Source: an uncultured Planctomycetota bacterium (GTDB lineage Bacteria; Planctomycetota; Phycisphaerae; UBA1845; Fen-1342). From it: a stretch of DNA of 64,000 nt. Under the pieces are notes generated by a model, which was not told where the DNA came from, did not search any database, and saw nothing but the letters and a program-made list of their open reading frames with translations. Positions 3,420-63,942 of the stretch are shown in pieces. The stretch is from assembly GCA_900696525.1 (NCBI GenBank), contig CAADGL010000004.1:32471-96470 (forward strand). Direction: 5' to 3'. How positions within the stretch are numbered: the stretch's first letter is position 1; every line of letters starts with the position of its first letter. A program made the translations under genes and the position numbers.

Positions 3420-3613
3420 ATCCCTGTCTCCCACCTCGTCGCCGGCCGCGCCGCGCCCGGCGACAGCGCCATCCTTCTCGTTTATTCCAGCGGCCGCGAG
3501 TTCGCGCCGCCGTCCGTCACCCGGCCGGCGCGCAGCGCCCGCCGACCGCCAACCCCCAGGGGATATTATCGACCGCTCCGCGACCGACCGCCAGAAATGC
3601 CGGCCGAGCGCTG

Positions 3614-4054
3614 TTACGGGCGGGCAACTGCCGTGCCGACCCGGGTGCTTCCGCAGCGAGGGCAGGCGCGGTCCCCGGCGTTCGGGTCCGGCACGAACGT
3701 GCGCTTGCAACTCAGGCAGAGCCACAACTCGTGGGCAGCCCGCTCCCGGCACCGCGAGCAGACCAGCGGAAACGCGTCTTGCGGGCCGACGCGGCGGGTT
3801 TCGGCGTACTCGCACCGCGCACAAAGCACGCGGACGGGGTAGCTGTTGGGCCCGACGCGGCCCTGCGCGGGCACGAGCGCCCAGGTGAAGGCGGCGGCGA
3901 GAACCGTCAGCCCTCCGCCCGCCAATCCGATCGCCAGGCGCCTGAGGCGTCGGCGCCGGGCGCGCACGCCGATCTCCATCTCCTCGCGACCCGCCCGCGA
4001 AAGGCTGGTCGGCTCGGGAAACCAGGGTCTGGGGCGATCGGGTCGCACGGCCAT
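3614..4054 (-). CDS. Hypothetical membrane-anchored zinc-ribbon protein
   Basis: One TM segment ([22 protein letters not shown]) followed by four CxxC pairs (CARC, CSRC, CLSC, CPRC). No family recognised. Confidence 0.45.
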
Positions 4055-5379: not shown

Positions 5380-6117
5380 ATGCTGCATCGCCTCGCCATT
5401 TCCGTGCTCGCGTCCCTGCTGCTGACGGGCTGCCTGCGCTTCGCGCCCGGCGGGGACCTGCCCGGCGGGGGTGACCCGAATCAGGCGCCCGCCGACAGCG
5501 ACAGCGACAGGGACGGTCTGACCGACGCCGACGAGCTGCGCCTGGGGACTGACCCGAACAACGCCGACAGCGACGGCGACGGCCTGAGCGACGGGCTCGA
5601 GGTCGGCCTGGGAACCAACCCGCTGAGCAGCGACACGGATGACGACGGGCTGAGCGACGGCGAGGAGCGCGGCCTCGGCACGGACCCGAAAGTCGCCAAC
5701 TTCGTCGGCACGGTAAGCGACGTGCTGTGTGCCGGGTTCGTCTCCGTGACGCCGGCGCAGGGCGAGCCGAAGGCGGTCGCCTTTGGCGCGACGGGCGCGG
5801 CGCGATTTGGGCAATGGAACAGCGGCGATCGCGTGGTGTATCACGGCGCCAGCCTGCTGAACATTACGCGCGGCGCGTCGGCCAGGGCCGAGCGCCTGGG
5901 CCAGGTGCAGCAGCAGGCGGCGATCTTCAGCTTCGCCGTCGGGCGGACGGTTCTGCTGCTTGACGATTCCACGTCGTGGGCGATCGACGCAGACGACCTG
6001 CTCATCTCGCAGGACTGGCGGGCGACCGACCCGGTTGTCGTGACCGCCGGCTCGGGCGGCGTGAACATCGTGATCAACGCGCCTCGTTGCGAACGCGTGC
6101 GCGCCAGTCCGCTGTGA
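5380..6117 (+). CDS. Lipoprotein with thrombospondin type-3-like calcium-binding repeats
   Basis: Signal peptide with lipobox LLLTGC. Repeated DSDxDGLxDxxE units (DSDRDGLTDADE, DSDGDGLSDGLE, DTDDDGLSDGEE). Confidence 0.7.
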   Translation: MLHRLAISVLASLLLTGCLRFAPGGDLPGGGDPNQAPADSDSDRDGLTDADELRLGTDPNNADSDGDGLSDGLEVGLGTNPLSSDTDDDGLSDGEERGLGTDPKVANFVGTVSDVLCAGFVSVTPAQGEPKAVAFGATGAARFGQWNSGDRVVYHGASLLNITRGASARAERLGQVQQQAAIFSFAVGRTVLLLDDSTSWAIDADDLLISQDWRATDPVVVTAGSGGVNIVINAPRCERVRASPL

Positions 6118-17424: not shown

Positions 17425-17466
17425 CGCGCCGGCGCACGTGAGATCTATCCGTCACAATCGCCCCGC

Positions 17467-17562
17467 GCGCGAACCGACCGGTGCGTGAATTGACCGGCGC
17501 GCGAACCGACCGGCGCACGAACCGACCGGCGCGCGAACCGACCGGCGAGCGAACCGACCGGC
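17467..17562. repeat. Tandem repeat, 16-nt unit x6 (GCGCGAACCGACCGGC)
   Basis: Six head-to-tail units counted directly, with 0-4 substitutions each. The unit length is not a multiple of 3, so it is non-coding. Confidence 0.9.
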
Positions 17563-17588
17563 GAGCGCCGATCGAGCGCCAAGCGGGC

Positions 17589-17833
17589 GTACGAGCCGCG
17601 AGCGCAAGCGAGTGGAGTGTTTTGAACGCCCGAAGAGCACAAGCACGAGAATGGCTCGCCTGCCCTAGGCGCACTCGTCGCTTCCACTCGCCTTGCGCTC
17701 GCTCACGCTCGCTTCGCGCTCGAAGGCTCGCTCACGCTCGCTTGGCGCTCGAAGGCTCGCTCGTCGCTCGTCCGGCGCTTACGCTTCTTTGGGCGTTCAA
17801 GATACTCCACTCGCTTGCGCTCGCGGCTCGTAC
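17589..17833. repeat. Long inverted repeat (43-nt arms, 159-nt spacer)
   Basis: 17589-17631 (GTACGAGCCGCGAGCGCAAGCGAGTGGAGTGTTTTGAACGCCC) is the reverse complement of 17791-17833, with about 3 mismatches. Confidence 0.85.
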
Positions 17834-17970
17834 ACTCGCGGCTCGTACGCTCGCTTGCGCTCGCGGCTCGTAAGCTCGCGGCTCGTACGCTCGCGGCTCG
17901 TCAGCTCGCTTGCGCTCGCTCGTACACCCTCGCTCGCGCTCGTCGCCCGCTCGTGTGCTCGCTTGCGCTC
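17697..17970. repeat. Block of GCTCGC-rich tandem repeats (29-nt unit x2.3, then 40-nt unit x2 plus degenerate copies)
   Basis: 17697-17725 and 17726-17754 differ at 1 nt. 17811-17850 and 17851-17890 differ at 2 nt. Degenerate CTCGCGGCTCGTA sub-units continue to about 17970. Confidence 0.85.
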
Positions 17971-50212: not shown

Positions 50213-51529
50213 ATGGCGTTCAGGACCGGTCTTGCGATCGCGCTCGGTGTCGGACTGTGGTGGGCTGCGCCGGCGGCGGGCCAGTTCGATCTCGAGATCA
50301 TCACTCCGCATCACGAGCACATCCAGCAGGAATTCGAGCGGGCGTTCGTCGAGCACGTCGGCCGGCCGCTGAAGATACGCTGGCTCAAGCAGGGCACCGG
50401 GCAACTGCTGAAAGTGCTCGAAGCCAAGGACCGCGCGGAACCCGGGAAGAGCTTCGGTCTCGACGTGTTCTTCGGCGGCGGCGTGCCGGATCACCAGCTC
50501 GCGGCGGAGCGCCACTTCACCATCGCGGCCAATGTGCCAGCGGAGATTCTCTCCGGCATTCCGCCGGAGATCGCCGGCGTCGCCAACTATGACAAGGAGG
50601 GCCGCTGGTTCGGGTCGGCGCTGTCGGCGTTCGGCGTGCTGATGAACCGGCGCGGGCTGGGGCAGCAGAACCTGCCGGAGATCCAAACGTGGGAAGACCT
50701 GTGCCACCCGCGGATGTTCGGCTGGGTGGTGATCGCTGACCCGCGGAAGAGCTCGAGCGTGCGGGTGTCGTACGAGCTGATCTTGCAGCAGTACGGCTGG
50801 GAGAAGGGTTGGCCGCTGCTGATGCAGCTCGCGGCGAACTCGCGACTGATCGCCGATGCGAGCAGCGCCGTGCCGAACGAGGTCGCCAGCGGCAACGCGC
50901 TCGCCGGCCCGTGCATCGATTTCTACGGCCGGGCACGCGTCGCGCAGGCCGGCGGCGGCGTGCTGGCGTACGTGAATCCGCGCGGCGGATCGGCGATTAC
51001 GCCCGATCCGATCTCGCTGCTGCGCGACCCGCCGCACCGCGAGCTGGCGGAGCGCTTCATCGCGTTCGTGCTGAGTGCGGAGGGACAGGGGCTGTGGATT
51101 CTGCCGCCCGGGGCGCCGGGTGGGCCGCGCGAGCACGCGCTGTATCGCCTGCCGATGCGGCCGGACGTGTTCGAGCGTCACCGAGGCGAGTTGCTCGTCC
51201 GCAACCCCTACGAAGAGGCGGGCCAGGGTGTTTTCTGCCGCATGAACGACGAGCTTCAGAACGCGCGGACGGTGCTGCTGGCCGAGCTCGTCGGCGTGGC
51301 GCTGGTCGATCAGCACACGGAGCTGAAGGCCGCGTGGAAGGCGCTGATCGCCGGCGGCATGAAGCCGGCCGCGCTCGACGAGTGGCGCAAGCCGCCGTTC
51401 AGTGAGCAGGAGGGTCTGGCGCTGAGCCACCGGCTCGCGGAAGGGGGGCGCGGGGCGCGCGAGATCACGCGCGACTGGGTGCGGATGTTCAAGCAGAAGT
51501 ACGCCAATGTGCAGCGCCTCGCGAAGTAG
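50213..51529 (+). CDS. ABC transporter periplasmic substrate-binding protein (family 1, iron/polyamine-like)
   Basis: ATG at 50213 gives the signal peptide MAFRTGLAIALGVGLWWAAPAAG. SBP_bac_1/6-like pattern. It follows the importer ATPase. Confidence 0.78.
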   Translation: MAFRTGLAIALGVGLWWAAPAAGQFDLEIITPHHEHIQQEFERAFVEHVGRPLKIRWLKQGTGQLLKVLEAKDRAEPGKSFGLDVFFGGGVPDHQLAAERHFTIAANVPAEILSGIPPEIAGVANYDKEGRWFGSALSAFGVLMNRRGLGQQNLPEIQTWEDLCHPRMFGWVVIADPRKSSSVRVSYELILQQYGWEKGWPLLMQLAANSRLIADASSAVPNEVASGNALAGPCIDFYGRARVAQAGGGVLAYVNPRGGSAITPDPISLLRDPPHRELAERFIAFVLSAEGQGLWILPPGAPGGPREHALYRLPMRPDVFERHRGELLVRNPYEEAGQGVFCRMNDELQNARTVLLAELVGVALVDQHTELKAAWKALIAGGMKPAALDEWRKPPFSEQEGLALSHRLAEGGRGAREITRDWVRMFKQKYANVQRLAK

Positions 51530-51590
51530 GCGCGGAGGCGGCGATGCGTCCGGGGCCCCGACGCCAGCCGCACCGCCGGAGTCCATCCGC

Positions 51591-52364
51591 GTGAATGAGC
51601 GCCCCGAGATCGTCCGGCTGGAGCAGCTCGTCAAGGTCTACAGCCAGGCCGGCGCCGAGGTCGCCGTGCATGCGCTGCGCGGCATCACGCTGACGATCCG
51701 CCAGGGCGAGTACGTCGCGATCATCGGCGCCAGCGGCAGCGGCAAGAGCACGCTGATGAACATCCTCGGCTGCCTCGACCGCCCCACCGCCGGCACATAC
51801 TGGCTGGCGGGCCAGGACGTGTCGACGCTCGACGACGACGAGCTTTCGGACTTCCGCGGGCGGAGCATCGGCTTCATCTTTCAGAATTTCAACCTCATCC
51901 AGGCCCAGACAGTGCTCGAGAACCTCGAAGTCCCCATGTTCTACCAGGGCGTGCCGCCCGCCGAGCGCCGCCAGCGCGCCTTCGCCGCCGCCCAGCGCGT
52001 CGGCCTCGCCGACCGGCTCCATCACCGGCCCAGCCAGCTCTCCGGCGGTCAGCAGCAGCGCGTCGCGATCGCGCGGGCGCTGCTGAACGACCCGGTGCTG
52101 CTGCTGGCCGACGAGCCGACCGGCAACCTCGACAGCGCGACCGGGCAGTTGATCCTCGCCGTCCTCGACGAACTGCACCGCGCCGGCAAGACGCTCGTGA
52201 TCGTCACGCACGACCGCGGCGTCGCCGCCCGCTGTCAGCGTGTCATCGAGTTCCGCGACGGCGTCGTCATCCACGACGGCGCCCCCGACGCCGCAGGCGC
52301 GGACGTCGGCCGGCACCACGCGGCAGACGCCGCAAGCCGCGAGCGGACCACGCCTCCGGCGTAG
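51591..52364 (+). CDS. ABC ATPase, MacB/LolD type
   Basis: [33 protein letters not shown] and [12 protein letters not shown]. The start is uncertain (GTG 51591 or ATG 51507). Confidence 0.85.
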
Positions 52365-52595
52365 CACGGCGGACGCGATTGCCACGCGGCCTGCCGGAAT
52401 ACCGGACCGAACGCGACCCCGGGCTCTGGACCAGGTGCTCATCGTGGACCTGGGGTCGAACGAGGAAGCGGCGCGGGAATCAACAACGATCCTGGGCGAG
52501 GCGTTGCCGGAACAGGATGCAGGGATAGTAGTAATCTAGCCGGAGCCTGTAACTGAACGAGCACCGGTGTCGTCCCCCATATAGTCATTCCCGGT

Positions 52596-52702
52596 TTTTC
52601 CGTGGCCTACGAGCCGCGGCCCCATTGAAGATTGGCAGTCCGCAGGACCTGCCGATAAGACCTTTCCTATCCGCGGCTTAACAGCCGCGGCCCCATTCTC
52701 CA
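52596..52702 (+). CRISPR. Degenerate two-repeat mini-array (psiR1 52596-52631, pseudo-spacer 52632-52666, psiR2 52667-52702)
   Basis: psiR1 is 30/36 and psiR2 26/36 identical to the 36-nt repeat of the main array. The strand is the same and the pseudo-spacer is 35 nt. psiR1 retains the 3' handle part and psiR2 retains the hairpin. A possible -10, TATAGT, lies at 52580-85. Confidence 0.8.
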
Positions 52703-52745
52703 GAGGCATACGCGAAAGAAGTGATGGGTGAAACTGCCGGGGTGC

Positions 52746-52791
52746 TTGCGTCGTTCATCTTACAGAGTATCTTATTGGCCGTCCGCAGGAC
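52746..52791 (+). promoter_or_regulatory. Putative promoter of the sigma-like gene, overlapping a PAM-flanked partial target of the mini-array pseudo-spacer
   Basis: TTGCGT (52746-51), a 16-nt spacer, then TATCTT (52768-73). TTA at 52772-74 is followed by TTGGCCGTCCGCAGGAC (52775-91), which is 16/17 identical to pseudo-spacer nt 1-17. Confidence 0.5.
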
Positions 52792-52808
52792 AAGAGCAGG
52801 AGAACGAT

Positions 52809-53378
52809 GTGCTCGGCGATAACGGAATCTCCCGAATCCTGACGAGCGACGAGTTCCACCGGCGGCTGTATCCGAAGCTGCCGCGCAGTGTGGCTGTCGA
52901 GGAAGTACTGGGCCGAACATGGGAGCGAGCGCGCGACAAGATGCCCACTGTCGGCGACCACGTCGCGTGGCTGCTGCGAGTCGGCGCGAACATCGCGCGC
53001 GATGACCTGAAGGCCGAAAGACGGCGCAGGCGTCGCGAGCGAGAAGTGGGCTGTACCGATTGCCGCGATGAGACATGCACGAATGATCCTCCGAACATGC
53101 ACGCAACGCAAGCCCAAAACGAGCCGGTGCACGATGTGGGCCCTGGCGCCGCGCTCGAGCGTCGCGAACTCCGTCGCGCGATCGTCAACGCCGTGCGTAC
53201 GGCGCGCCTGCCACGAAATCATCGCTGCGCGCTATGGGCATGGCTCCGAGACGAGATTGCGAAGTGGGCCGCGGGGCGCGGGATTCCAGCGGCGACCGCT
53301 CGCGTGTGGGCGCTGCGCGCTCGCGACGCCCTGCGGCCTCACTTGGTAGCCGTTGGCCTCGCGTCGGCAGGTACATGA
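52809..53378 (+). CDS. ECF-type sigma-70-family factor-like protein
   Basis: AGGAG, 6 nt, then GTG at 52809. Region-2-like DHVAWLLRVGANIARDDLKAERRRRR and region-4-like HTH LPRNHRCALWAWL..EIAKWAAGRGIPAATARVWALRARDALR. The track ORF starts at GTG 52728. Confidence 0.6.
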   Translation: MLGDNGISRILTSDEFHRRLYPKLPRSVAVEEVLGRTWERARDKMPTVGDHVAWLLRVGANIARDDLKAERRRRRREREVGCTDCRDETCTNDPPNMHATQAQNEPVHDVGPGAALERRELRRAIVNAVRTARLPRNHRCALWAWLRDEIAKWAAGRGIPAATARVWALRARDALRPHLVAVGLASAGT

Positions 53379-53432
53379 AACCCCGGACGCTCGAGCGTCG
53401 TTCATTCGTTACCGGAGCGATCGCGACCGAGG

Positions 53433-53461
53433 TTGACGGAGACCATTAAGTTCGGTATGTG
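53433..53461 (+). promoter_or_regulatory. Putative sigma70-type promoter of the cas operon
   Basis: TTGACG (53433-38), a 17-nt spacer, then TATGTG (53456-61), 47 nt upstream of the cas7 ATG, in an AT-richer stretch. Confidence 0.4.
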
Positions 53462-53507
53462 TTTGGAGGCGTTCCGATCGAGTTGAGCTTCCGGAAGGAG
53501 AAATGCG

Positions 53508-55085
53508 ATGCCCGATTCACTCACACTCGAAACATTGCGCAGGGCCGTCGCCGGCTCGGCCGCTGCCTTTCGCTGCGTGACCGAGTACCAGCCGGCCGGC
53601 GGGCCGGGGGACAAGGTCTTTCCGCCCACGTATGAGGGCGGCAAGTACGCCACGGAGAAGCGCTACGTGCCCGGCCGCGAGGGGCCGGTGGACTGCGTGC
53701 TGCTCGATTCGGTGCAGTCGCAGGCCAACCGGATGGAGCTGGCGCTGCTGGATGCGTGGGAAGCTGGGCGCATCGAGCTGCCGGTCATCGTCGTGGATTT
53801 CACGAATGACCGGCTGGAAAAGCGGCTTCGCGTCACGAGCCTCGACGCCCCGCACCGCATCGCCGATGCGCTCCTGCGCGACAGCTACGACGGCAACGGC
53901 AAGGGGCGGGTGCTCTTCCGTCAATCGGAGCGCGGCAAGCGGCTGGACATGGTCGACCTGCGAAACGCGACGCCGCTGCTGGAGATGTGCCCGACGGCGC
54001 TGGTCTTCGGCATGTGGGACTCGACCGGGCCGAAGGGCGGCCTGGGCGCGAAGTTTCAGCGGGCGCTGGTTTCTGAGATCGTCGGGCACGACGCCACCGC
54101 GGGTGTAAAGACGAGCAGTCGAATCGACCCCGCGCAGATCGTGTTGGGCGCGGGTCCACTATTCCGCCGCCAAGACGGGCGCTGGACCCCATTTCCTGAT
54201 GACGCGGTTAGAGAGGGCAATCCCGAGAAGGACGGGAAAGTCAAACTCCTCCTTTACGGGAAGGTGAAGAAGAAGGATGTCTGGCATGAAGTCCCCGTCC
54301 TCAAGACGTCGTCTGGAAAGCCAACGGTGGACCCGTCTAAGGCCGAACGCCGCGAGAATCCGGCGCCTCAGCTTCGGTTGTACCACCGGACGGGCAACGA
54401 CGAGTGGATCAATGCGGGCGATTTTCCAACGTCCACCTCAGATGCGGCGCGGCCATCGATTAGCAATCACGGCAACGTGACGCCGACGATTGACGTCCGC
54501 AAGGACTCAAACGGCAACCCGGTGAGAGAGCACGTTCCGGCGATGTTCCTTCGCGACAATCGTGATTTTGTGGTCTATCGTGAGCATGAGACGCCAAGCT
54601 GCATCGGCGGCTTCACAATCTCCAAGGCCGTGCAGACCACGACGATGTCGCTGCCCGCGTTGCGCCGGCTGCACTTTCCGGTGGACGCTGGCGGACGACC
54701 GGCATCCGAGACCGAGCGCAAGAAGCAGGACGACATCAACGGCGCCGGACGCACGGCGCTGGCGGCGCTCGGGCTCTGCGCGGCGACACTCGCCCGTGAA
54801 TCCGGCTGTGACCTGCGCTCGCGTTGCCAGCTCGTCGCCACGACGCCATTCGAGTGGGAGTTCCTCGACAAACCCGGCGAGTCGGAGCATGCGCGCTACG
54901 CGCTGAGCGGGAACGAGGCCATCAAGCTGCTAAATGACGCCGTCGCCGATTTGCGCAAACACGTCTCTGGCGCGTGGCCGAAGAATCCGATCGAGCTCAC
55001 CCCGTCCGACGAGCTGCTCGAGCTGGTCGTCCGTAGTCAGAAACTGGCCGCGGCGGGCAAGGGCGAAACCGCCGTGGAGGAGTGA
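53508..55085 (+). CDS. cas7: Type I-G/I-U Cas7 (Csb1/GSU0053 family)
   Basis: Motifs VFPPTYEGGKY, LDSVQSQANRME and PTALVFGMWDSTGPKGG match my recollection of Csb1. RBS GGAAGGAG. First gene of a coupled operon next to the CRISPR array. Confidence 0.82.
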   Translation: MPDSLTLETLRRAVAGSAAAFRCVTEYQPAGGPGDKVFPPTYEGGKYATEKRYVPGREGPVDCVLLDSVQSQANRMELALLDAWEAGRIELPVIVVDFTNDRLEKRLRVTSLDAPHRIADALLRDSYDGNGKGRVLFRQSERGKRLDMVDLRNATPLLEMCPTALVFGMWDSTGPKGGLGAKFQRALVSEIVGHDATAGVKTSSRIDPAQIVLGAGPLFRRQDGRWTPFPDDAVREGNPEKDGKVKLLLYGKVKKKDVWHEVPVLKTSSGKPTVDPSKAERRENPAPQLRLYHRTGNDEWINAGDFPTSTSDAARPSISNHGNVTPTIDVRKDSNGNPVREHVPAMFLRDNRDFVVYREHETPSCIGGFTISKAVQTTTMSLPALRRLHFPVDAGGRPASETERKKQDDINGAGRTALAALGLCAATLARESGCDLRSRCQLVATTPFEWEFLDKPGESEHARYALSGNEAIKLLNDAVADLRKHVSGAWPKNPIELTPSDELLELVVRSQKLAAAGKGETAVEE

Positions 55086-55088
55086 GCA

Positions 55089-56675
55089 ATGGCCAGCCGC
55101 CCCAACCCGGTCGCCCCCGGGCCGGCAGGCCCGCCGGCGCCGCCGCAAGTGACGCGCTTCTCCATCGCCGTGCGCTATCTGAACGGCTGGGCAATGGCCA
55201 CGCACCCGACCGACCGCGAGCGGGCCGAATGGCCGCCGCACCCGGACCGGCTCTTCATGGCGCTCGTCGCCGCCGCAGCAGACAAAACCGGATTCGACGA
55301 GGCGTTGAAGTATGTCGAGCGTCAGGCAGCACCGGCAATCACGGCCTCGGACGCTGAGCAGCGCGAGGTTGTGACGAGCTACGTGCCCGTAAACGATCCG
55401 GAGATAACGCGGAAGAAAAAGCCCGAGTCGCCCAACAAGCGCTATGCTTCAATCCAGACCTTGGAAAAGGCCAAAGAAGCAGGCCTTGCGCTGCTCCCCG
55501 AGCACCGGGGGCGGCAGCCGCGGACGTTTCCCGTCGCGATTCCGCGCGAGCCGACCGTTCATATCATCTACGAGGCGAACGACGCCTTCACGCCGGAGAT
55601 TCGCGAGAAACTCGCCGCTCTGTGCATGCGCGTGGCGCGCGTCGGCCACTCGGCATCACTTGTGCAGTGCTGGCTCGATTTCGATCCGCCTCCGGCCAAT
55701 CTCATCCCGACCGACGGCGCTGCGCCGCACCGGCTCCGCGTCCCCAGCGCCGGCCGGCTGGAATACCTTCGCGGGCTGTATGAGCTGAACCATCAGCAAG
55801 GCACGGACCTGCGCCCGACGCCCGGCGTATGGGCGGGGTACAGACCAGCAGATTCCGCTACGGTCGCGACGAACATGGCGCTCTCTGTGTTCGGCCCGGC
55901 CTTCCTGCTGCTGCGGCCGGTCGAGGACGAGCGCCGTCGCCCGCCGCTGGTCTCGACGCTGCTCCTGACTGAAGCGCTGCGCGGCCTGCTGATGAACGGC
56001 ACGCGCGCCGTGGATATTCCCGAAGCCCTCAGTGGTCATGCCGCCGATGGCTCACGACTGGACCGGCCGCACCTGGCGATCGCGCCGTTGCCGTTCGTCG
56101 GTTTCGATCACGCAGACGGCCGCATCATGGGCATGGCACTCGTGCCGCCACGTAACGAGAGTGACGCCGGCGCGATCGCGCAGTCACTGAACCGAAAGCT
56201 GTTTGGCGAAGCCGGATTCGAGGCGCCGACACTTACGCTGAAGATGGGCGGCGCGGGCACGTGGGCGCTCGCGGCATCCGATGACTTCCGCCAGGCCTCG
56301 CTGCGCCCCGAGGTCTGGACCGCTGCGCCGGGTGGGGCGACCACCTGGGCAACGGTCACGCCGGTCGTACTGGACCGCCACCCGAAAGGCCGCAACGGCG
56401 GCGCGATGGCTCAACAAACCAAGGAGATCCTCGCCGATGCCTGCATAAACATCGGCCTGCCGCGGCCTGTCGCCGTCGAGTTCGGCCCGGTCTCGATCCT
56501 CCGTGGCGTGCCGCACGCGCGCGACTTTCCGCCGCTCCGGCGCAAGGACGGTTCGGCGGCAAACTACATGCACGCAGTGTTCGAATTTGACAGGCCCGTC
56601 ATCGGGCCGGTGCTGCTCGGCGCCGGACGGTATCGTGGCTATGGCCTGTGCCGGCCGGTGAAGGACGCCACATGA
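55089..56675 (+). CDS. csb2: Type I-G/I-U Cas5-Cas6 fusion (Csb2/GSU0054 family)
   Basis: The N-terminus FSIAVRYLNGWAMATHPTDRERAEWPPHPDRLFMALVAAA is Csb2-like. The gene starts 4 nt after the cas7 stop. Confidence 0.78.
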   Translation: MASRPNPVAPGPAGPPAPPQVTRFSIAVRYLNGWAMATHPTDRERAEWPPHPDRLFMALVAAAADKTGFDEALKYVERQAAPAITASDAEQREVVTSYVPVNDPEITRKKKPESPNKRYASIQTLEKAKEAGLALLPEHRGRQPRTFPVAIPREPTVHIIYEANDAFTPEIREKLAALCMRVARVGHSASLVQCWLDFDPPPANLIPTDGAAPHRLRVPSAGRLEYLRGLYELNHQQGTDLRPTPGVWAGYRPADSATVATNMALSVFGPAFLLLRPVEDERRRPPLVSTLLLTEALRGLLMNGTRAVDIPEALSGHAADGSRLDRPHLAIAPLPFVGFDHADGRIMGMALVPPRNESDAGAIAQSLNRKLFGEAGFEAPTLTLKMGGAGTWALAASDDFRQASLRPEVWTAAPGGATTWATVTPVVLDRHPKGRNGGAMAQQTKEILADACINIGLPRPVAVEFGPVSILRGVPHARDFPPLRRKDGSAANYMHAVFEFDRPVIGPVLLGAGRYRGYGLCRPVKDAT

Positions 56676-59600
56676 GCGCACTGCCAACCCTGGAAGCCAG
56701 CGAATTCGCGGCGTTCTTCATGGCGCTCAACGGCGTTGATCCGTTTCCCTGGCAACAACGCCTGCTCGACGACTTCGTCGCCGGCAAGTGGCTCGATGCG
56801 GAGAACAATCCGCAACAATGGCCGGCGGCAATGGCCCTTCCTACCGCCAGCGGGAAGACCGCCTGCATCGACATCGCGCTGTTCCATCTCGCGTTGCAGG
56901 CGGATTTGCCGCCGAACGAGCGGACCGCGCCGCGGCGCATCTTCTTCTGCGTCGATCGGCGCGTCATCGTTGACGAGGCCCACCAGCGCGCCCTCATGAT
57001 CGCAATGCGGCTTCAAGCGGCGGCCAGGAATGCCTCGATTGACGGTGATGTGCTCTCCCGCGTCGCGTCGCGGCTGCGGCATCTCGCGGGAAGCGACCAA
57101 GCCGCTCCGCTGGCCGTACACCAGCTCCGCGGCGGCATGTTTCGCGACGACGCCTGGGCCACGTCGCCATTGCAGCCGACGGTAATCTGCACGACGGTCG
57201 ACCAACTCGGCTCGCGGCTGTTGTTCCGCGCCTACGGCGTCAGCCCGCACTCGGCGTCGATCCACGCCGGCCTGGCCGCCAATGACGCGCTGGTTCTTCT
57301 CGACGAAGCCCACTGCGCCGAGCCGTTCCGGCAGACACTCAACGCTGTGCGGCTCTTCCGGGGTGCGAAATGGGCCGAACGGCCTCTTCCGTCGCCCTTC
57401 GCCTTCGTCGAGATGTCCGCCACGCCGCGGAGCGAAGGGCAACGGTTTGAGCTGGATGTAAGCGATCGGGGTCACGCGGAACTGAAGAAGCGGCTGGAGG
57501 CCAGCAAGCCCGCGAAATTGCTCCCATCTGCGTCCAGTACGAATGACAACGATTTCACTCCGAAGTTCGCGAGCGAGCTCGTGAAACATGTCGCTGAGCA
57601 GGTGAAGGCAGACTCGAAGCGTATCGCCGTCATGGTCAATCGCGTTCCGACGGCGCAGGCCGTCTACGCCGCACTTGAAAAGGCCTCTCGAACGGCGACG
57701 CCCGACTCTCCTGAACAGACCGATCCCGTTGCCGAATCAAAGAAAACGGAACCGATCGCCTGCGACCGCGTGCTCATGATCGGCCGCATGCGCCCGCTTG
57801 ATCGCGACGATCTCGTGCGCCTGTGGCAGCCGAAGCTGAAGGCGACGCCGGGCAGCAACGAACGACGTGAAACGCACCAGAAGCCCATCGTCGTCGTTGC
57901 CACGCAATGTCTCGAAGTCGGCGCGAACCTCGACTTCGACGCCCTGATCACCGAGGCTGCCAGTCTGGACGCCCTGCGGCAGCGCTTCGGCCGGCTGAAT
58001 CGACTTGGACGCGACGAATCGTGCCACGCCGTGATCGTGGCACCCAAGGACGCGATCAAGGACGGCGCCGACGACCCGATCTACGGGCCGGCCATCGCGA
58101 ATACCTGGAACTGGATGCACAAGCACGCGCAGCCCGCCGCGGACGGTGTTTCGCGGACTGCTGCGACCGCTACCACCGGGGCCGCCAAGCCGAGGAGAAC
58201 GAGCAGGAAGAGTGCGGCCGCCGCTGAGGCAACGAAGATGATCGACTTCGGCGTCAACGCGATCGCAGCGAGTCTGCCAACGAACGCCGACGAGCGTGCC
58301 AAGCTTCTCAAGGCGCTCTCGCCGCCCGCGCCGGATGCGCCTGTCATGCTGCCCGCGCACCTCGACCTCTGGTGCCAGACTGCGCCCGTCCCCGATCCCG
58401 ATCCCGATGTGTCGATCTTCCTGCACGGCCCGCAGCGCGGCGTGCCGACCGTCTCCGTCTGCTGGCGGGCGGACCTCGGCGATGATTCGGAGAAGTGGGC
58501 CGAGATCGTGTCACTGCTGCCGCCGTCGTCGCCCGAGTGCATGCCCGTGCCGCTGCACCTGGTTCGCAAGTGGATCAAGCACGAACCGGCCCAGCCAACG
58601 GACGATACCGGAGACGTCGAGCAGGCCGCGCAGGGCGACGACCGCGACGACCGCCAGGGAACGAGCGGTGAGCCTCGCTACGTTCTCCGCTGGCGCGGCA
58701 ATCCCCGTGAGAGGGAGAGCGAAACATGCCCGACAAACGACCCCAACGACCTTCGCCCCGGCGACGTCGTCGTCATCCCGGCGGCCTGGGCGCATACGTG
58801 CTCGTTCGGCCACCTTCCGAGAATCACAAGCGAGTGGACGCAGCAGAAGGACGGCGACAAGGAGAACGAGAAGCTTCGCCAGCCTCTTCCCGACTCGATC
58901 GCCACGCCGCTCGACCGCGCCGAGCAGGCCAACCTGATCGCCCGCCGGCGTTTGGCGCTTCGACTCACGCCGCAGTTCGTCGAGTCGCGGCCCGACCCGC
59001 GCGATGACGAGAACCGTCCCGTGATTCCCGCGCGTTGCGAGTTGCTCTCCCTTCTGCAAGACCCGGAAACGCGCGAGCGTCTCGGCGAGCCGGACGTGGC
59101 CGGCCAGCTCAAGGCGACTCTGCGCGACCTGAGCCGTCAACTCAAGGACGGCGCGAAGGCGAAAGGGGTCGATACCGAATCGGCATGGCTGCGTGTGCTG
59201 ATTGCCGCGACCACGACGCGCGCGCTGCGCGCCGAGGTCGTCGGGCATCCCGCCGGCGGGCTCGTCGTCCGCAGTCGGAGGCGTATCGGCGAGCGCGCCC
59301 TGCGCGCGGCGGGCCTGATACCCGGCGAACTCGAAGCCGGTGTTGGCGATGAGGACGAACGCTCGCTGGCCGCCCCGCGGCCCGTCGCGCTCGAAGCCCA
59401 TGTTTCCGCCGTTGCCAACCAAGCTAAGACATTCGCTCGCGCCGGCGGCGCGAAGGGGCTGGCCGATGCCGTGTGTCGCGCCGCGCTGCTGCACGACCAC
59501 GGCAAGCTTGACCCGCGCTTTCAGGCATATCTCCTCGGTGCGGGATGTCTCGCGGTGAACGCTCGTGCGCCGCTCGCCAAGTCCGGCCGCTCGCCGACCC

Positions 59601-60082
59601 CTGCCCAGATTCGTGAAGATGCTCGCCGCGCGGGCCTGCCCGCGGGCTTCCGCCACGAGATGCTCTCCATGCACATCGCCGAGCATGCGAACAACGACGG
59701 CAAGTCTTTGCTGGACGGCCTGCCGGACGACTTGCACGACCTCGTCCTGCACCTCATCGCCAGCCACCACGGTCATGCTCGCCCCTTCGCCCCCGTCGTG
59801 GTTGACAAGAATCCTCCACCGCTGCCGACATTCGAGCTCCGGTGCGAAAGTTCATCCTCCGACGCCAACGTGAAACTCCCTGCCATCGACGCAGGTCAGC
59901 GCGCCGAATGGGAGCGGTGCCCCGCCCATCGGCTCGACTCCGGCGTCTGCGACCGCTTCTGGACGCTCACTCGCCGTTACGGCTGGTGGGGCCTGGCCTA
60001 CCTGGAGGCGATCCTGCGCCTGGCCGACCGCGCGGCGAGCCGCGAAGAGGAGCAGAGTCCTAGCAGGAGCACCGGCAGATGA
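56672..60082 (+). CDS. cas3: Cas3 helicase-nuclease with C-terminal HD domain
   Basis: Walker A PTASGKT, DEAH box LLDEAHC, helicase C region, and C-terminal HD motifs LHDHGKLD, FRHEMLS and ASHHGHARP. ATGA overlaps with both neighbouring genes. Confidence 0.93.
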   Translation: MSALPTLEASEFAAFFMALNGVDPFPWQQRLLDDFVAGKWLDAENNPQQWPAAMALPTASGKTACIDIALFHLALQADLPPNERTAPRRIFFCVDRRVIVDEAHQRALMIAMRLQAAARNASIDGDVLSRVASRLRHLAGSDQAAPLAVHQLRGGMFRDDAWATSPLQPTVICTTVDQLGSRLLFRAYGVSPHSASIHAGLAANDALVLLDEAHCAEPFRQTLNAVRLFRGAKWAERPLPSPFAFVEMSATPRSEGQRFELDVSDRGHAELKKRLEASKPAKLLPSASSTNDNDFTPKFASELVKHVAEQVKADSKRIAVMVNRVPTAQAVYAALEKASRTATPDSPEQTDPVAESKKTEPIACDRVLMIGRMRPLDRDDLVRLWQPKLKATPGSNERRETHQKPIVVVATQCLEVGANLDFDALITEAASLDALRQRFGRLNRLGRDESCHAVIVAPKDAIKDGADDPIYGPAIANTWNWMHKHAQPAADGVSRTAATATTGAAKPRRTSRKSAAAAEATKMIDFGVNAIAASLPTNADERAKLLKALSPPAPDAPVMLPAHLDLWCQTAPVPDPDPDVSIFLHGPQRGVPTVSVCWRADLGDDSEKWAEIVSLLPPSSPECMPVPLHLVRKWIKHEPAQPTDDTGDVEQAAQGDDRDDRQGTSGEPRYVLRWRGNPRERESETCPTNDPNDLRPGDVVVIPAAWAHTCSFGHLPRITSEWTQQKDGDKENEKLRQPLPDSIATPLDRAEQANLIARRRLALRLTPQFVESRPDPRDDENRPVIPARCELLSLLQDPETRERLGEPDVAGQLKATLRDLSRQLKDGAKAKGVDTESAWLRVLIAATTTRALRAEVVGHPAGGLVVRSRRRIGERALRAAGLIPGELEAGVGDEDERSLAAPRPVALEAHVSAVANQAKTFARAGGAKGLADAVCRAALLHDHGKLDPRFQAYLLGAGCLAVNARAPLAKSGRSPTPAQIREDARRAGLPAGFRHEMLSMHIAEHANNDGKSLLDGLPDDLHDLVLHLIASHHGHARPFAPVVVDKNPPPLPTFELRCESSSSDANVKLPAIDAGQRAEWERCPAHRLDSGVCDRFWTLTRRYGWWGLAYLEAILRLADRAASREEEQSPSRSTGR

Positions 60083-61041
60083 GCAGCTCGAATCCGCAGC
60101 ACGAACTCGTTCTCAGCGGCCTCGACGGCGCGAACCCGCTGGGTTTCCTGGCGGCCTTGGGCACGCTCCGGACTGCGACTCGCGCGTTCAACTCCCAACC
60201 GGTGAGAATGCGCTGGGAGCAGCACGGCGGTTGGCGCCCGGTCCTGATCTCGCCGATCGACACGCCGGACGCGCTTGCCGACGCGCTCCACGATTGCCTG
60301 ACTCAGCCCCACAAATGCGAGACGTGTGGGGAGCGCCACTCCCATGCTTCCGCGCTCTGCGTTGGCGACGACCTTGCGCTACCAGCCGAGCAGTTTCGCC
60401 AGACGGCGTTGAGTTTCCGCGCCGGGGATCGTGAGGCCGTCGCGTTTCTCGCGGCCTTCGGAAGCGACGCCGTCATGAACAGCAAGAAGCAGTCTGTGAT
60501 CCAGGACACCGCTTTCCGGACGATGAGCGGCGCTGGACACCAGCACTTTCTCAAGTTCGCTCGCAACATCTGCTCGGCGTGCACGCGCGACCACATCAAG
60601 CGAGACCTCTTCGAAACCTGGCGATATGCCGACCCGGTGCAGAATCACACGCTCCGGCTGGACCCTCTTGACGACGCCCGCTACGCGCTGCGCTGGTCCG
60701 ACCCGAGCGGCGACCCGACGCGCCAGCAACGAGGGTCGGTGTATGGCGCCAACCGGCTCGCGATCGAAGCGCTTCCGCTGTTTGCGTGCGTGCCGCGTCG
60801 AGGGATTCTTCGCACGATCGGATTCGTCGAGAACAAGACCACCGGCGTTTGGTTTCGCTGGCCGATCTGGACGCAGCCGCTGTCGCTCGACGCCGTACGA
60901 TCACTGCTTACGCTCTCGACGGATCCAGCGAACGCTTCCCGTTCCGAGGCGTTGCGTGCCCGCGGCGTTGTCGAGTCCTTCGAGAGCCGTCGCCTGACGG
61001 TCGGCAAATTCAGGTGCTTTTCGCCGGCGCGGCCAGTATGA
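60079..61041 (+). CDS. Cas8u-like large-subunit candidate (Csb3/Csx17-like N-terminus), unusually short
   Basis: The position (last gene of the effector operon) and the N-terminal LSGLDGANPLGFLAALGTLR resemble the Csx17/Csb3 N-terminal motif as I remember it. Only 320 aa. Confidence 0.55.
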   Translation: MSSSNPQHELVLSGLDGANPLGFLAALGTLRTATRAFNSQPVRMRWEQHGGWRPVLISPIDTPDALADALHDCLTQPHKCETCGERHSHASALCVGDDLALPAEQFRQTALSFRAGDREAVAFLAAFGSDAVMNSKKQSVIQDTAFRTMSGAGHQHFLKFARNICSACTRDHIKRDLFETWRYADPVQNHTLRLDPLDDARYALRWSDPSGDPTRQQRGSVYGANRLAIEALPLFACVPRRGILRTIGFVENKTTGVWFRWPIWTQPLSLDAVRSLLTLSTDPANASRSEALRARGVVESFESRRLTVGKFRCFSPARPV

Positions 61042-61263
61042 TGTTTGACAAGTGAACACCGTGGTTGTTTCGCGCAACGGCCCGCGAGCGTGATGGTGGT
61101 GAAGGGGGGGTGCCGGGGACGCTCGCACGAACGGAGATCATTTAGAATTGGAGACTTACGACCTATCACGGGATCGAACTCAACCGAACGAAAGCCAACC
61201 AAGCGGCCCGTACTCGCCCGCACTTGCGCAACTGGCTGGTATCTTGGAGGTTGCGAGTACGGC
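61042..61263 (+). promoter_or_regulatory. CRISPR leader region
   Basis: A 222-nt non-coding stretch between the last cas gene and the first repeat. It includes an AT-richer core (GAGATCATTTAGAATTGGAGACTTACGACCTATCAC). Confidence 0.6.
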
Positions 61264-63942
61264 GTCTCCGCGGCTCACGAGCCGCGGCCCCATTGAAGCG
61301 TGACGAGCGTTGACGCTCGCATGCGTCAGCGGGTGGTCTCCGCGGCTCACGAGCCGCGGCCCCATTGAAGCAGCGCCTCGGCGCGCGCCACGTCACCGCG
61401 CCGCTCGTCTCCGCGGCTCACGAGCCGCGGCCCCATTGAAGCTCCGGGTTTTTCGTAGAAATCGCCAGGTCCAGATCGTCTCCGCGGCTCACGAGCCGCG
61501 GCCCCATTGAAGCCTGGCGGCGTACTGGGCTTTTGTGGCGGCGTTTTTTGGTCTCCGCGGCTCACGAGCCGCGGCCCCATTGAAGCCGCTGCCCGGTCAA
61601 CAGCCCGGCCGACGCCGAGTGTCTCCGCGGCTCACGAGCCGCGGCCCCATTGAAGCGGGCTGAGCGAGATCGATCTGATTCGCTCGCTCGTCTCCGCGGC
61701 TCACGAGCCGCGGCCCCATTGAAGCTCAAGCTGCGGCGGGCGCTTCGGCAGAAAAGACCGGATGTCTCCGCGGCTCACGAGCCGCGGCCCCATTGAAGCC
61801 GATACGGCCCCAGCACTTCGCAGGCCGACTCGTAGGAGTCTCCGCGGCTCACGAGCCGCGGCCCCATTGAAGCGCCACCTCGACGGGCGGGCAAGGCCTG
61901 GAGGCGGCGGTCTCCGCGGCTCACGAGCCGCGGCCCCATTGAAGCCAGGCCGAGCTGGAGCAGAGGGTAGGTGAGGTCGATGGTCTCCGCGGCTCACGAG
62001 CCGCGGCCCCATTGAAGCTGGCGACATGGGCCGGGCGCTCGGTCGTGCGGAGGGTCTCCGCGGCTCACGAGCCGCGGCCCCATTGAAGCGGCCTCGTTGC
62101 GTATTGCGTCGGGCGATGACTGCCGTCTCCGCGGCTCACGAGCCGCGGCCCCATTGAAGCCGGTACGGCCTCAGTACGTCGCGGGCCTCGCTGTAGCGTC
62201 TCCGCGGCTCACGAGCCGCGGCCCCATTGAAGCATCTCCTTCTCACAGGCTCGCGACCTGGTACAGGACGTCTCCGCGGCTCACGAGCCGCGGCCCCATT
62301 GAAGCTTCGCGCTGCCGCCTGTGTCGTTGGCCACCCCCGGTCTCCGCGGCTCACGAGCCGCGGCCCCATTGAAGCAGCGCCTCGGCGCGCGCCACGTCAC
62401 CGCGCCGCTCGTCTCCGCGGCTCACGAGCCGCGGCCCCATTGAAGCCGACGCTGCCACGCCAACACCGCCTGCCCACTACGGTCTCCGCGGCTCACGAGC
62501 CGCGGCCCCATTGAAGCTGTACACCACCCGCCCGCCGCCGGACTCGGGACGGGTCTCCGCGGCTCACGAGCCGCGGCCCCATTGAAGCACGGGATGAGTC
62601 GCGGGGTGGTTGAGAAGCTCCTCGTCTCCGCGGCTCACGAGCCGCGGCCCCATTGAAGCGCGGCGGGCTGCCGCACCGCGAACGGGGCGGCGCGATGGTC
62701 TCCGCGGCTCACGAGCCGCGGCCCCATTGAAGCCCATGCACCTCGCTCGTACCGCTCCACGCGGTCAGTCTCCGCGGCTCACGAGCCGCGGCCCCATTGA
62801 AGCACAGATACTCAGCCGGGCGTCAAGCGGATTTCCGGGTGTCTCCGCGGCTCACGAGCCGCGGCCCCATTGAAGCAACCCCGCTTTGCGTGGTGGCGGC
62901 ATGAATCTCAGTCTCCGCGGCTCACGAGCCGCGGCCCCATTGAAGCGATGCGAGCGGCTATCCAGCGACTGGAGGAGCTCGTCTCCGCGGCTCACGAGCC
63001 GCGGCCCCATTGAAGCGTCTCGTCGCCATAGAGCACGAGCCGGTCCCGGTAGTCTCCGCGGCTCACGAGCCGCGGCCCCATTGAAGCGCTGAGGACATCG
63101 AGGCTGCGGAGCAGGCCGGGGCCTGTCTCCGCGGCTCACGAGCCGCGGCCCCATTGAAGCCTGAGGTGGACGCCGTCCAGCTCCGCTCGGAGGGTCTCCG
63201 CGGCTCACGAGCCGCGGCCCCATTGAAGCTTTCGGCGGGTGATTGGGGGGTCGTACACACAGCGTCTCCGCGGCTCACGAGCCGCGGCCCCATTGAAGCC
63301 GGTGATGACCAGCGTGGGCATGCGGGCATAATAGCAGTCTCCGCGGCTCACGAGCCGCGGCCCCATTGAAGCCTCGCAGATCGGGCAGGGCTTGCCCACC
63401 GAACCCGGGTCTCCGCGGCTCACGAGCCGCGGCCCCATTGAAGCCGGAGAAGGCCGCAAAATTGATCCGCCGCCGAAACGCGTCTCCGCGGCTCACGAGC
63501 CGCGGCCCCATTGAAGCGCCCTGAGGGTCTTGTTTCGGATCCGTTCGCGCTGTCTCCGCGGCTCACGAGCCGCGGCCCCATTGAAGCCTAATCGTCACCG
63601 ACTCCTCGCCGATGAATTCGGGTCTCCGCGGCTCACGAGCCGCGGCCCCATTGAAGCAGGCCGCTGAGGAGCTGTACCCGCGATCGGCCGTCTCCGCGGC
63701 TCACGAGCCGCGGCCCCATTGAAGCGCCTCTGGCCACCGCTTCCACCACGCCTCGATCTGGTCTCCGCGGCTCACGAGCCGCGGCCCCATTGAAGCTGCT
63801 TGATTCGTTCGCGCTGCCGCTGGTCCCTGGCCGTCTCCGCGGCTCACGAGCCGCGGCCCCATTGAAGCGCAGCGAGTACGAGGTGCCGCCGTCGTAGTTC
63901 CGCCACGTCTCCGCGGCTCACGAGCCGCGGCCCCATTGAAGC
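61264..63942 (+). CRISPR. CRISPR array: 38 identical 36-nt repeats (GTCTCCGCGGCTCACGAGCCGCGGCCCCATTGAAGC) and 37 spacers of 32-38 nt
   Basis: All repeat coordinates were counted by hand. The repeat has an internal 8-bp hairpin (CCGCGGCT/AGCCGCGG) and a 3' ATTGAAGC typical of a type I crRNA 5' handle, so transcription is on the + strand, co-directional with the cas genes. Confidence 0.99.

Follow-up and report, generated by a model that had tools for sequence, protein, structure and literature searches.

Why does a type I-G CRISPR-Cas locus (short palindromic repeats, clustered and regularly interspaced, with their associated genes) keep, far from its CRISPR array, a pair of decayed repeats directly in front of a gene that resembles a sigma factor? 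The locus is located in a stretch of 64,000 nucleotides (nt) from an uncultured Planctomycetota bacterium (assembly GCA_900696525.1, contig CAADGL010000004.1, positions 32,471 to 96,470), which is referred to as a whole as the window. The decayed unit, or mini-array, resembles CreR elements, in which a CRISPR RNA (crRNA)-like RNA directs the type I effector complex Cascade to a promoter of its own locus. Comparisons with related loci support that the pseudo-spacer of the mini-array is under selection to pair with a site in the promoter region of the sigma-like gene. Judging from these sequence comparisons, a CreR-type mini-array gene whose RNA, bound by Cascade, would repress the sigma gene of the locus is the likely explanation overall.

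The mini-array lies on the plus strand and consists of two degenerate repeats, psiR1 (52596..52631) and psiR2 (52667..52702), on either side of a 35-nt pseudo-spacer, psiS (52632..52666). psiR1 agrees with the array repeat at 30/36 positions (6 mismatches) and keeps the 3' hairpin arm, CCCC, ATTGAAG and the 5' handle ATTGAAGA. psiR2 agrees at 26/36 positions (10 mismatches), with its hairpin of 8 base pairs (bp) intact, its 3' end scrambled and the handle lost. A degenerate-repeat scan of the window found repeat-like copies on the plus strand outside the array only at 52596 and 52667, 71 nt apart, and the mini-array is separate from the main array, which is 8.6 kb away. The coordinates, identities and spacing of the two repeats had all been given correctly by an earlier reading made without database searches (hereafter the sequence-only reading). 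Rfam returned for the mini-array only a sub-threshold CRISPR-DR match, at psiR1. In a type I-G system, the cleavage site of Csb2 is 4 nt 3' of the base of the hairpin; the product has a 5' handle of 8 nt, and Csb2 stays on the 3' hairpin (PMC9638904). This geometry fits the repeat of the locus. The surviving parts of psiR1 and psiR2 are thus exactly those that a mature RNA would need. Such asymmetric decay, with the handle kept in psiR1 and the hairpin kept in psiR2, is a feature of CreR elements, and so is the placement of a psiR-psiS-psiR unit inside a CRISPR-cas locus but apart from its main array, an arrangement that was kept in all of the loci compared below.

The guide segment of psiS, nt 1-17 (TTGGCAGTCCGCAGGAC), recurs on the same strand at 52775..52791 as TTGGCCGTCCGCAGGAC, with nt 6 as the sole mismatch, whereas psiS and target agree at only 7/18 positions from nt 18 to nt 35. 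Before the target, TTA (52772..52774) occupies the position of a protospacer-adjacent motif (PAM), which is 5' of the protospacer when the non-target strand is read, and the target is followed by AGGAG (52798-802) and the GTG start codon of the sigma-like gene at 52809. All these details of the sequence-only reading were confirmed. Only the psiS and target sites matched the pattern TTGGCNGTCCGNAGGAC with up to two mismatches in the 64 kb (0.32 expected), so that psiS has no further target in the window at this threshold, and an exact match of 15 bases would arise by chance in about 1e-4 of such windows by simple arithmetic. A TTN PAM, which the sequence-only reading had put forward for a characterised I-G system, was reported for that of Geobacter (Almendros 2019, as cited in PMC9638904). 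With this literature PAM, the locus shows the PAM-proximal partial match to a PAM-flanked site that is expected of a CreR element.

We compared 13 distinct loci from Planctomycetota metagenomes and metagenome-assembled genomes (MAGs), namely those with enough upstream sequence. The useful loci were obtained by exact-protein look-ups, and searches with an alignment of the sigma-like proteins gave one locus each in genome contigs and metagenome contigs. The mini-array was present in every one of the 13. psiS and target carried the same base in 13, 12, 10, 12 and 12 loci at nt 1 to 5, in 12, 13, 12, 13 and 13 loci at nt 7 to 11, and in 13, 13, 11, 12 and 13 loci at nt 13 to 17, respectively. Agreement fell to one locus at nt 6, four at nt 12 and four at nt 18, and each position from nt 19 to nt 35 agreed in one to five loci, which is the chance level. 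Across the psiS/target pairs, nt 1-17 were about 95% identical while nt 18-35 were at chance, and the match took the form of three 5-nt blocks (nt 1-5, 7-11 and 13-17) with nt 6, 12 and 18 free. In type I Cascade, every sixth base of the guide is flipped out, which gives a 5+1 periodicity, and the block pattern read from the aligned psiS and target sequences is this periodicity. Five bases per Cas7 are presented for pairing in the cryo-electron microscopy structure of an I-G complex (PMC9638904).

Changes within the blocks were matched on both sides. Matched double changes were observed at 9/15 block positions (nt 1, 2, 3, 4, 5, 7, 8, 16 and 17), and the block sequences varied with lineage, among them TTGGC.GTCCG.AGGAC, ATGGC.GCCCG.AGGGC, TTGTT.TTCCG.AGGAA (or AGGAT in the last block) and TCTTT.TTCCG.AGTAT. 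Cognate psiS/target pairs scored 14-15 of 15 in 11/13 loci, compared with 5-13 for pairs taken across classes, and despite the G-to-A differences at nt 3 in loci L009 and L012, an rG-dT wobble would be formed there. The target was flanked by TTN in all 13 loci, by TTA in nine of them and by TTG or TTC in the others. The block match over the 13 loci, together with the matched double changes, therefore shows that the pairing of psiS with its target is under selection. The CreA/CreR-like interpretation put forward by the sequence-only reading gains strong support from these results, and the co-varying pairs of mini-array and target for which it proposed to search related I-G loci were found in all 13. 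In locus L022, part of the sequence upstream of the sigma gene is duplicated in tandem (5889-5975), which has created two TTA-flanked targets; these match psiS at 15/15 and 14/15 positions in the paired segments.

The match was kept regardless of the orientation of the mini-array. In four loci (L007 and L020-22) the mini-array is inverted, so that it diverges from the sigma gene, and psiS nonetheless runs in the same sense as the coding strand of the sigma gene there, as in all other loci. Pairing would therefore be between RNA and DNA rather than with an antisense RNA. An antisense-RNA mechanism was considered and rejected, psiS having the same sense as the sigma mRNA throughout. Where the two are co-oriented, the offset from psiS to the target varies from 131 to 153 nt.

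The repeats of the mini-array are also constrained. The columns that are invariant over the 13 loci are the 3' arm, CCCC and ATTGAAG of psiR1 and the hairpin of psiR2. The psiR2 hairpin was paired in 13/13 loci with two compensated pairs (G-C to A-U and U-A to C-G), and the psiR1 hairpin was paired in 81% of cells over the loci, likewise with two compensated pairs, so the hairpins are under selection as well. psiS is itself self-complementary (52632-52655): its nt 1-24 can fold as a hairpin of about 10 bp in which nt 1-10 pair with nt 14-24. The inner palindrome of this hairpin, GTCC..GGAC, is common to psiS and target and co-varies in some lineages, and the outer part is found in psiS only. 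In the outer part, an A-to-G change at nt 6 accompanies a T-to-C change at nt 19 in L005 and L017. The hairpin may explain why nt 6 of psiS is conserved despite its mismatch with nt 6 of the target.

The gene behind the target (52809..53378, plus strand) has an in-frame GTG start, encodes a protein of 189 amino acids (aa) and heads the I-G effector operon. The exact protein is recorded in a Phycisphaerae (Planctomycetota) MAG, and homologues are rare, amounting to 40 clusters among 5.8 billion. Wherever there was enough sequence, I-G cas genes followed the gene immediately downstream, and the order was either sigma-cas7-csb2-cas3 or sigma-cas3-x-cas7-csb2. In the AlphaFold model of the protein (predicted local distance difference test score, 75.6), a disordered linker connects two helical domains, and the top 21 Foldseek matches in the PDB were all extracytoplasmic function (ECF) sigma factors, among them SigL, RpoE, SigH, AlgU and SigW. 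The sigma4 domain alone was superimposed on that of SigL with a template modelling (TM) score of 0.63 and a root-mean-square deviation of 3.3. The model thus shows the two-domain architecture, sigma2 plus sigma4, of the ECF (group 4) sigma family. The family alignment contains the motifs W..R(V/I)A.N..(K/R)D..KAE.RR and TxRVWAxRAR, several family members are annotated by JGI as sigma-24 family proteins, Sigma70_r2 was weakly matched in 7/15 relatives, and a profile of the family matched RpoE in the PDB at an E-value of 0.012. The label sigma-like in the sequence-only reading is thus supported by the fold. Based on fold and motifs, we infer that the protein is a divergent ECF-type sigma factor, competent as such. 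Its gene is no chance neighbour of the mini-array but a conserved head gene of these I-G operons. Between the sigma gene and the cas genes, no anti-sigma gene was found in the window, and small uncharacterised open reading frames (ORFs) occur at this place in some relatives, such as two in L005, of 81 and 140 aa, that separate cas7 from the sigma gene. A further homologue, L008 (30% identity), showed no mini-array; it was taken for an ordinary ECF sigma factor and left out of the comparison.

ECF sigma factors usually autoregulate, and the classic signature of their promoters is AAC in the -35 element and CGT in the -10 element with a spacing of 16-17 nt, as in TGAAAC-N16-CGTA for sigmaW and TGTAAC-N17-CGAC for sigmaX of Bacillus. 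The motif TG(T/A)AAC-N17-CGT had exactly three matches in the 64-kb window, compared with 0.29 expected, and all three lie on the plus strand of this locus. P1 (TGTAAC-N17-CGTC, 52548..52574) is 21 nt upstream of psiR1 and is the putative promoter of the mini-array gene, creR. P2 (TGAAAC-N17-CGTT, 52729..52755) is located 80 nt before the start of the sigma gene. P3 (TGAAAC-N17-CGTT, 53376..53402) begins with the TGA stop codon of the sigma gene, about 107 nt before cas7, and is the putative promoter of cas7-csb2-cas3. This layout recurs at the same positions in nearly all loci: P2 was kept in 12/13 loci and P3, on the sigma stop codon, in 11/13, and in L007 and L020-22 the creR motif was inverted together with the mini-array, with the same spacing of 22 nt preserved. 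An AAC...CGT-type promoter therefore precedes the sigma gene, as is typical of autoregulated ECF sigma factors, and its recognition by this very protein is predicted. The three positions suggest that the sigma factor of the locus drives creR from P1, itself from P2 and the effector genes from P3. The psiS target lies at the second of these promoters, 20 nt past its -10 element in the window and 20-21 nt past it in all co-oriented loci; the cas7 motif P3 has no psiS match.

The sequence-only reading had placed the promoter of the sigma gene at TTGCGT (52746-51) and TATCTT (52768-73), which are 16 nt apart and overlap P2. This proposal was weakened: the two hexamers agree with the sigma-70 consensus at only 7/12 positions, a sigma-70 promoter and terminator scan of 52400-53600 called nothing, and the conserved promoter-like signal is of the ECF type. 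The hexamers may act as a basal promoter. No ECF-type motif was found before the CRISPR leader (61042-61263), and the array therefore does not appear to be part of the proposed regulon. The leader contains, at 61219-61250, CTTGCGC-N10-TATCTTGG, an echo of the TTGCGT...TATCTTA words at the sigma promoter; a sigma-70 promoter would need a wider spacing. A looser, fourth match to the ECF-type motif, TGAAAC-N18-CGTCGT, is located on the plus strand inside cas3g (57868-57894), where it could be a chance match or an internal promoter.

The genes that follow define the CRISPR locus in the window as a type I-G (formerly I-U) interference module. Downstream of the sigma gene, all on the plus strand and identified with Pfam and NCBIfam, are csb1/cas7g (53508-55085; TIGR02570, E 1e-17), csb2, encoding a Cas5-Cas6 fusion (55089-56675; TIGR02165, E 2e-85), cas3g (56648-60082; TIGR02621, E 2e-215) and, after cas3, a gene for a Cas3-extension protein of 320 aa (60079-61041; NF049934, E 7e-78). 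Cas7g is 525 aa long in the window and 418-434 aa long in relatives. Adaptation genes are absent from the locus: cas4-cas1 is missing, and cas2 is reduced to a remnant of the last 37 codons and the stop (52429..52539, plus strand), 33/37 residues (89%) of which are identical in BLASTP to Cas2 of the relative L001. Upstream, the remnant is abutted by an ABC-transporter gene (Pfam ABC_tran, 51507-52364). cas4-cas1 and cas2 are carried by relatives of the window locus. In L005, the 3' end of cas2 occurs twice, about 425 nt apart, with an ORF of 87 aa on the reverse strand between the copies (3380-3850), an arrangement suggestive of an insertion beside the promoter of the mini-array.

The main CRISPR array (61264..63942, plus strand), which runs towards the end of the window, contains 38 exact copies of the 36-nt repeat GTCTCCGCGGCTCACGAGCCGCGGCCCCATTGAAGC and 37 spacers of 32-38 nt. 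All 38 repeats are perfectly identical, yet cas4-cas1 and most of cas2 have been deleted. One 35-nt spacer is present twice in identical form (61372-61406 and 62376-62410), and the spacers at 61800-61837 (CGATACGGCCCCAGCAC...) and 62161-62197 (CGGTACGGCCTCAGTAC...) are diverged versions of each other, as if one gene had been sampled from two related invaders. Searches for protospacers gave only chance-level matches, whether by blastn of the whole array against 50,697 phage records, by a scan of IMG/VR with five degenerate spacer patterns, or by blastn-short of the spacers against the window and all fetched loci. The PAM assignment is consequently based on published work and on the conservation of TTN beside the target. 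Elsewhere in the window, dense GC-rich tandem repeats (17465-17909; periods 16, 29 and 40; TRF scores 114-157) are unrelated to the CRISPR locus.

A mechanism can be proposed from this arrangement. creR would be transcribed from P1, and Csb2 would cut the transcript 4 nt after each hairpin to give an RNA of about 71 nt, comprising the 8-nt handle, the 35-nt pseudo-spacer and the psiR2 hairpin. This CreR RNA is predicted to be loaded in I-G Cascade and to base-pair with the template strand of the target by way of nt 1-5, 7-11 and 13-17 of psiS. The 17-nt match would be too short for a full R-loop, so Cascade would sit on the site without cutting by Cas3 and block RNA polymerase. Given its distance from the -10 element of P2, the protospacer would span roughly +10 to +30, where bound Cascade would clash with the polymerase. 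The sigma factor would thereby switch on creR, itself and the effector genes, and Cascade with CreR would switch the sigma gene off; as the sigma factor would drive both creR and the cas genes, a negative loop would be closed around a positive one. Titration of free Cascade, by an anti-CRISPR or by a flood of crRNA, would release the brake. Within this scheme, transcription and processing of creR, repression of the sigma gene and reading of the motif by the sigma factor are all predictions. It is very probable that the mini-array encodes an RNA under selection to guide Cascade to the sigma promoter, and the full relay through the sigma factor is somewhat favoured.

The sigma-like gene might merely be the first cistron of an operon under simple CreR autorepression, with the motifs read by a host sigma factor or serving another role, so that Cascade with CreR would lower cas expression only by blocking read-through from P1 and P2 via the sigma gene into cas7. 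Three observations would suit such a simpler circuit: the scan called no terminator between the sigma gene and cas7, described CreR elements have the promoter of the first effector gene as their direct site of action, and the protein falls below every curated family threshold. That account is nevertheless unlikely in view of the third motif, which in 11/13 loci overlaps the stop codon of the sigma gene and immediately precedes the effector genes, of the way in which the motif accompanies the sigma gene over divergent hosts and two gene orders, and of its absence from the rest of the window. The order of the elements, a mini-array followed by a target promoter and its gene, is also that of creA and its toxin promoter, which raises the idea of an addiction module: an autoregulated sigma factor without an anti-sigma could run away by self-activation or compete for RNA polymerase, and the loss of Cascade would then poison the cell, a penalty that would protect the cas genes. 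Known CreT toxins are small RNAs or peptides and not sigma factors, and no small toxin ORF or RNA was evident in 52703-52808. Unlike in the CreTA modules of types I-B and I-F, whose RNA is CreA, the neighbour here is a sigma-like protein of 189 aa at the head of an operon, and its fixed position and the same motif before the cas genes point to regulation. We regard addiction as very unlikely; that the window locus kept the module despite losing cas1, cas2 and cas4 is uninformative in this respect.

Cascade with CreR might physically engage the ECF-like sigma factor and position or hand over its holoenzyme, as a type I form of RNA-guided transcription or as a dual switch for repression and activation. 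A precedent is dCas12f-sigmaE, in which a guide recruits the sigma-RNA polymerase complex, transcription starts 46 bp downstream of the target-adjacent motif, and promoter motifs are absent (PMC12259090). That system likewise links an ECF sigma gene to an RNA-guided CRISPR protein whose guide targets its own locus for autoregulation. However, promoter motifs of the ECF type occur at three sites in the present locus and a guide match at only one, the PAM is 30-52 nt from the start codon in 10/12 gaplessly aligned loci, which is too close for the 46-bp geometry and fits repression. These points speak against activation with that geometry, and an activating role in any geometry is very unlikely. 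The two systems also differ in their effector, which here is of type I, competent as a nuclease and accompanied by a complete array. It is extremely unlikely that psiS and target are duplicated operators of a dimeric DNA-binding protein, co-varying with that protein, and that the mini-array is a fossil. The palindrome at nt 7-17 (GTCC-GCA-GGAC), which co-varies to GCCC..GGGC and TTCC..GGAA in some loci and extends to about 10 bp in psiS, could be so read, but the match begins exactly at spacer nt 1 in all loci, TTN is found only at the target copy while the psiS copy is preceded by the handle, and the target lacks the extended palindrome. L007, L021 and L022 moreover have an interrupted palindrome, selection acts on the repeat hairpins at the RNA level, and the 5+1 periodicity is a signature of type I Cascade. 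A functionless remnant of a former array, its match left over from a duplication, was suggested by the offset of 143 nt in the window, which is close to two array periods, and the sequence-only reading had raised the caveat that the target could be a decayed unit in register with such an array. The comparative data refute this: the varying offset, the mini-arrays on the opposite strand in four loci, the fall from about 95% identity to chance after nt 17 and the matched double changes remove the caveat and leave the remnant account practically without credibility.

A CreR-type mini-array that represses the sigma gene of its locus thus remains the preferred explanation, and several observations weigh against it. 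The cognate score is 12 in L021, with three extra mismatches, and L007 needs a 1-nt bulge in the target. Only about five classes of pseudo-spacer occur among the 13 loci, which implies few independent events. The protein does not pass the curated models Sigma70_r2, r4_2 and TIGR02937, has no match in Pfam, and matches NCBIfam models only at E 0.005-0.09, far below their cut-offs. A host sigma factor could read TGAAAC-N17-CGT instead, the pairing of sigma factor and motif being drawn from position and from typical ECF promoters. Cas8g/Csx17 was not found at the locus with Pfam or NCBIfam, which leaves PAM reading unexplained, and with no protospacer found, the PAM of this system is not derivable from its own spacers. 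Finally, in one I-G system of Bifidobacterium, no repression of a reporter was seen in vitro with Cascade alone (PMC9335239).

CreR RNAs have been demonstrated for types I-B, I-E and V-A, and CreR-like elements have been noted for types I-D, I-C, I-E, I-F and I-U (Liu et al. 2023, bioRxiv 10.1101/2023.03.10.532045). The mini-array in the window shares with them a degenerate psiR-psiS-psiR unit upstream of effector genes, the handle in psiR1 and hairpin in psiR2, and a PAM-proximal match of psiS to a PAM-flanked promoter site in its own locus, with binding without cleavage and negative feedback as the expected outcome. It differs in that the target promoter is that of the ECF-like sigma gene and not directly that of cas8 or cas7, that the effector genes have a separate promoter-like motif that is not targeted, that creR seems to depend on the same sigma factor, and that the match consists of exactly three 5-nt segments in an I-G case known from sequence alone. 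In a survey of mini-arrays validated for type I-F1 (Shmakov et al. 2023, PMC10120712), mini-arrays are given for 4% of I-G loci; these belong to the same class of crRNA-like RNAs, which are partly complementary to the promoters of cas genes or of cargo genes, and sigma is not mentioned in the main text.

Control of CRISPR-Cas by ECF sigma factors has precedents as well. In Myxococcus xanthus, the dedicated ECF sigma/anti-sigma pair DdvS/DdvA controls an island of type III-B CRISPR-Cas and CBASS (cyclic oligonucleotide-based antiphage signalling system) genes (PMC6061681, PMC11506125), and ECF control by PvdS has been proposed for a type I-F system. As with DdvS, a sigma gene encoded beside the CRISPR-Cas genes is predicted here to drive their expression. 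The anti-sigma in that case is a membrane protein, whereas none was seen here and the predicted brake is RNA-guided Cascade at the sigma promoter, and the subtype and phylum are different. A paper on ECF classification (PMC7826278) makes no mention of CRISPR. No earlier account was found of this sigma family associated with I-G, or of any crRNA-like RNA directed at the promoter of a sigma gene carried by a CRISPR locus, in a literature coverage that was incomplete and gives absence of evidence only. The combination that the sequence-only reading believed to be undescribed is thus new, as far as found, in its wiring to a sigma factor; the CreR-like class itself had already been noted for I-U, and the principle of CreR autoregulation, described in 2023 and predicted for that subtype, is not new.

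If the proposed circuit is correct, type I-G systems would carry their own promoter-specificity factor, and the effector complex together with a fossil spacer would act as the equivalent of an anti-sigma factor at the level of transcription. Expression of the cas genes would be largely independent of host regulators, which would be useful after horizontal transfer, and autoactivation of the sigma factor combined with RNA-guided feedback would produce a sharp burst of Cas proteins once free Cascade runs low because of anti-CRISPRs or crRNA load. In addition, the pattern seen across the loci is a natural read-out of target recognition by type I-G, the least characterised type I subtype, with three paired 5-nt segments and a TTN flank, nt 6, 12 and 18 being free. 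It may provide design rules for I-G CRISPR interference, in which a 17-nt match would bind without cutting.

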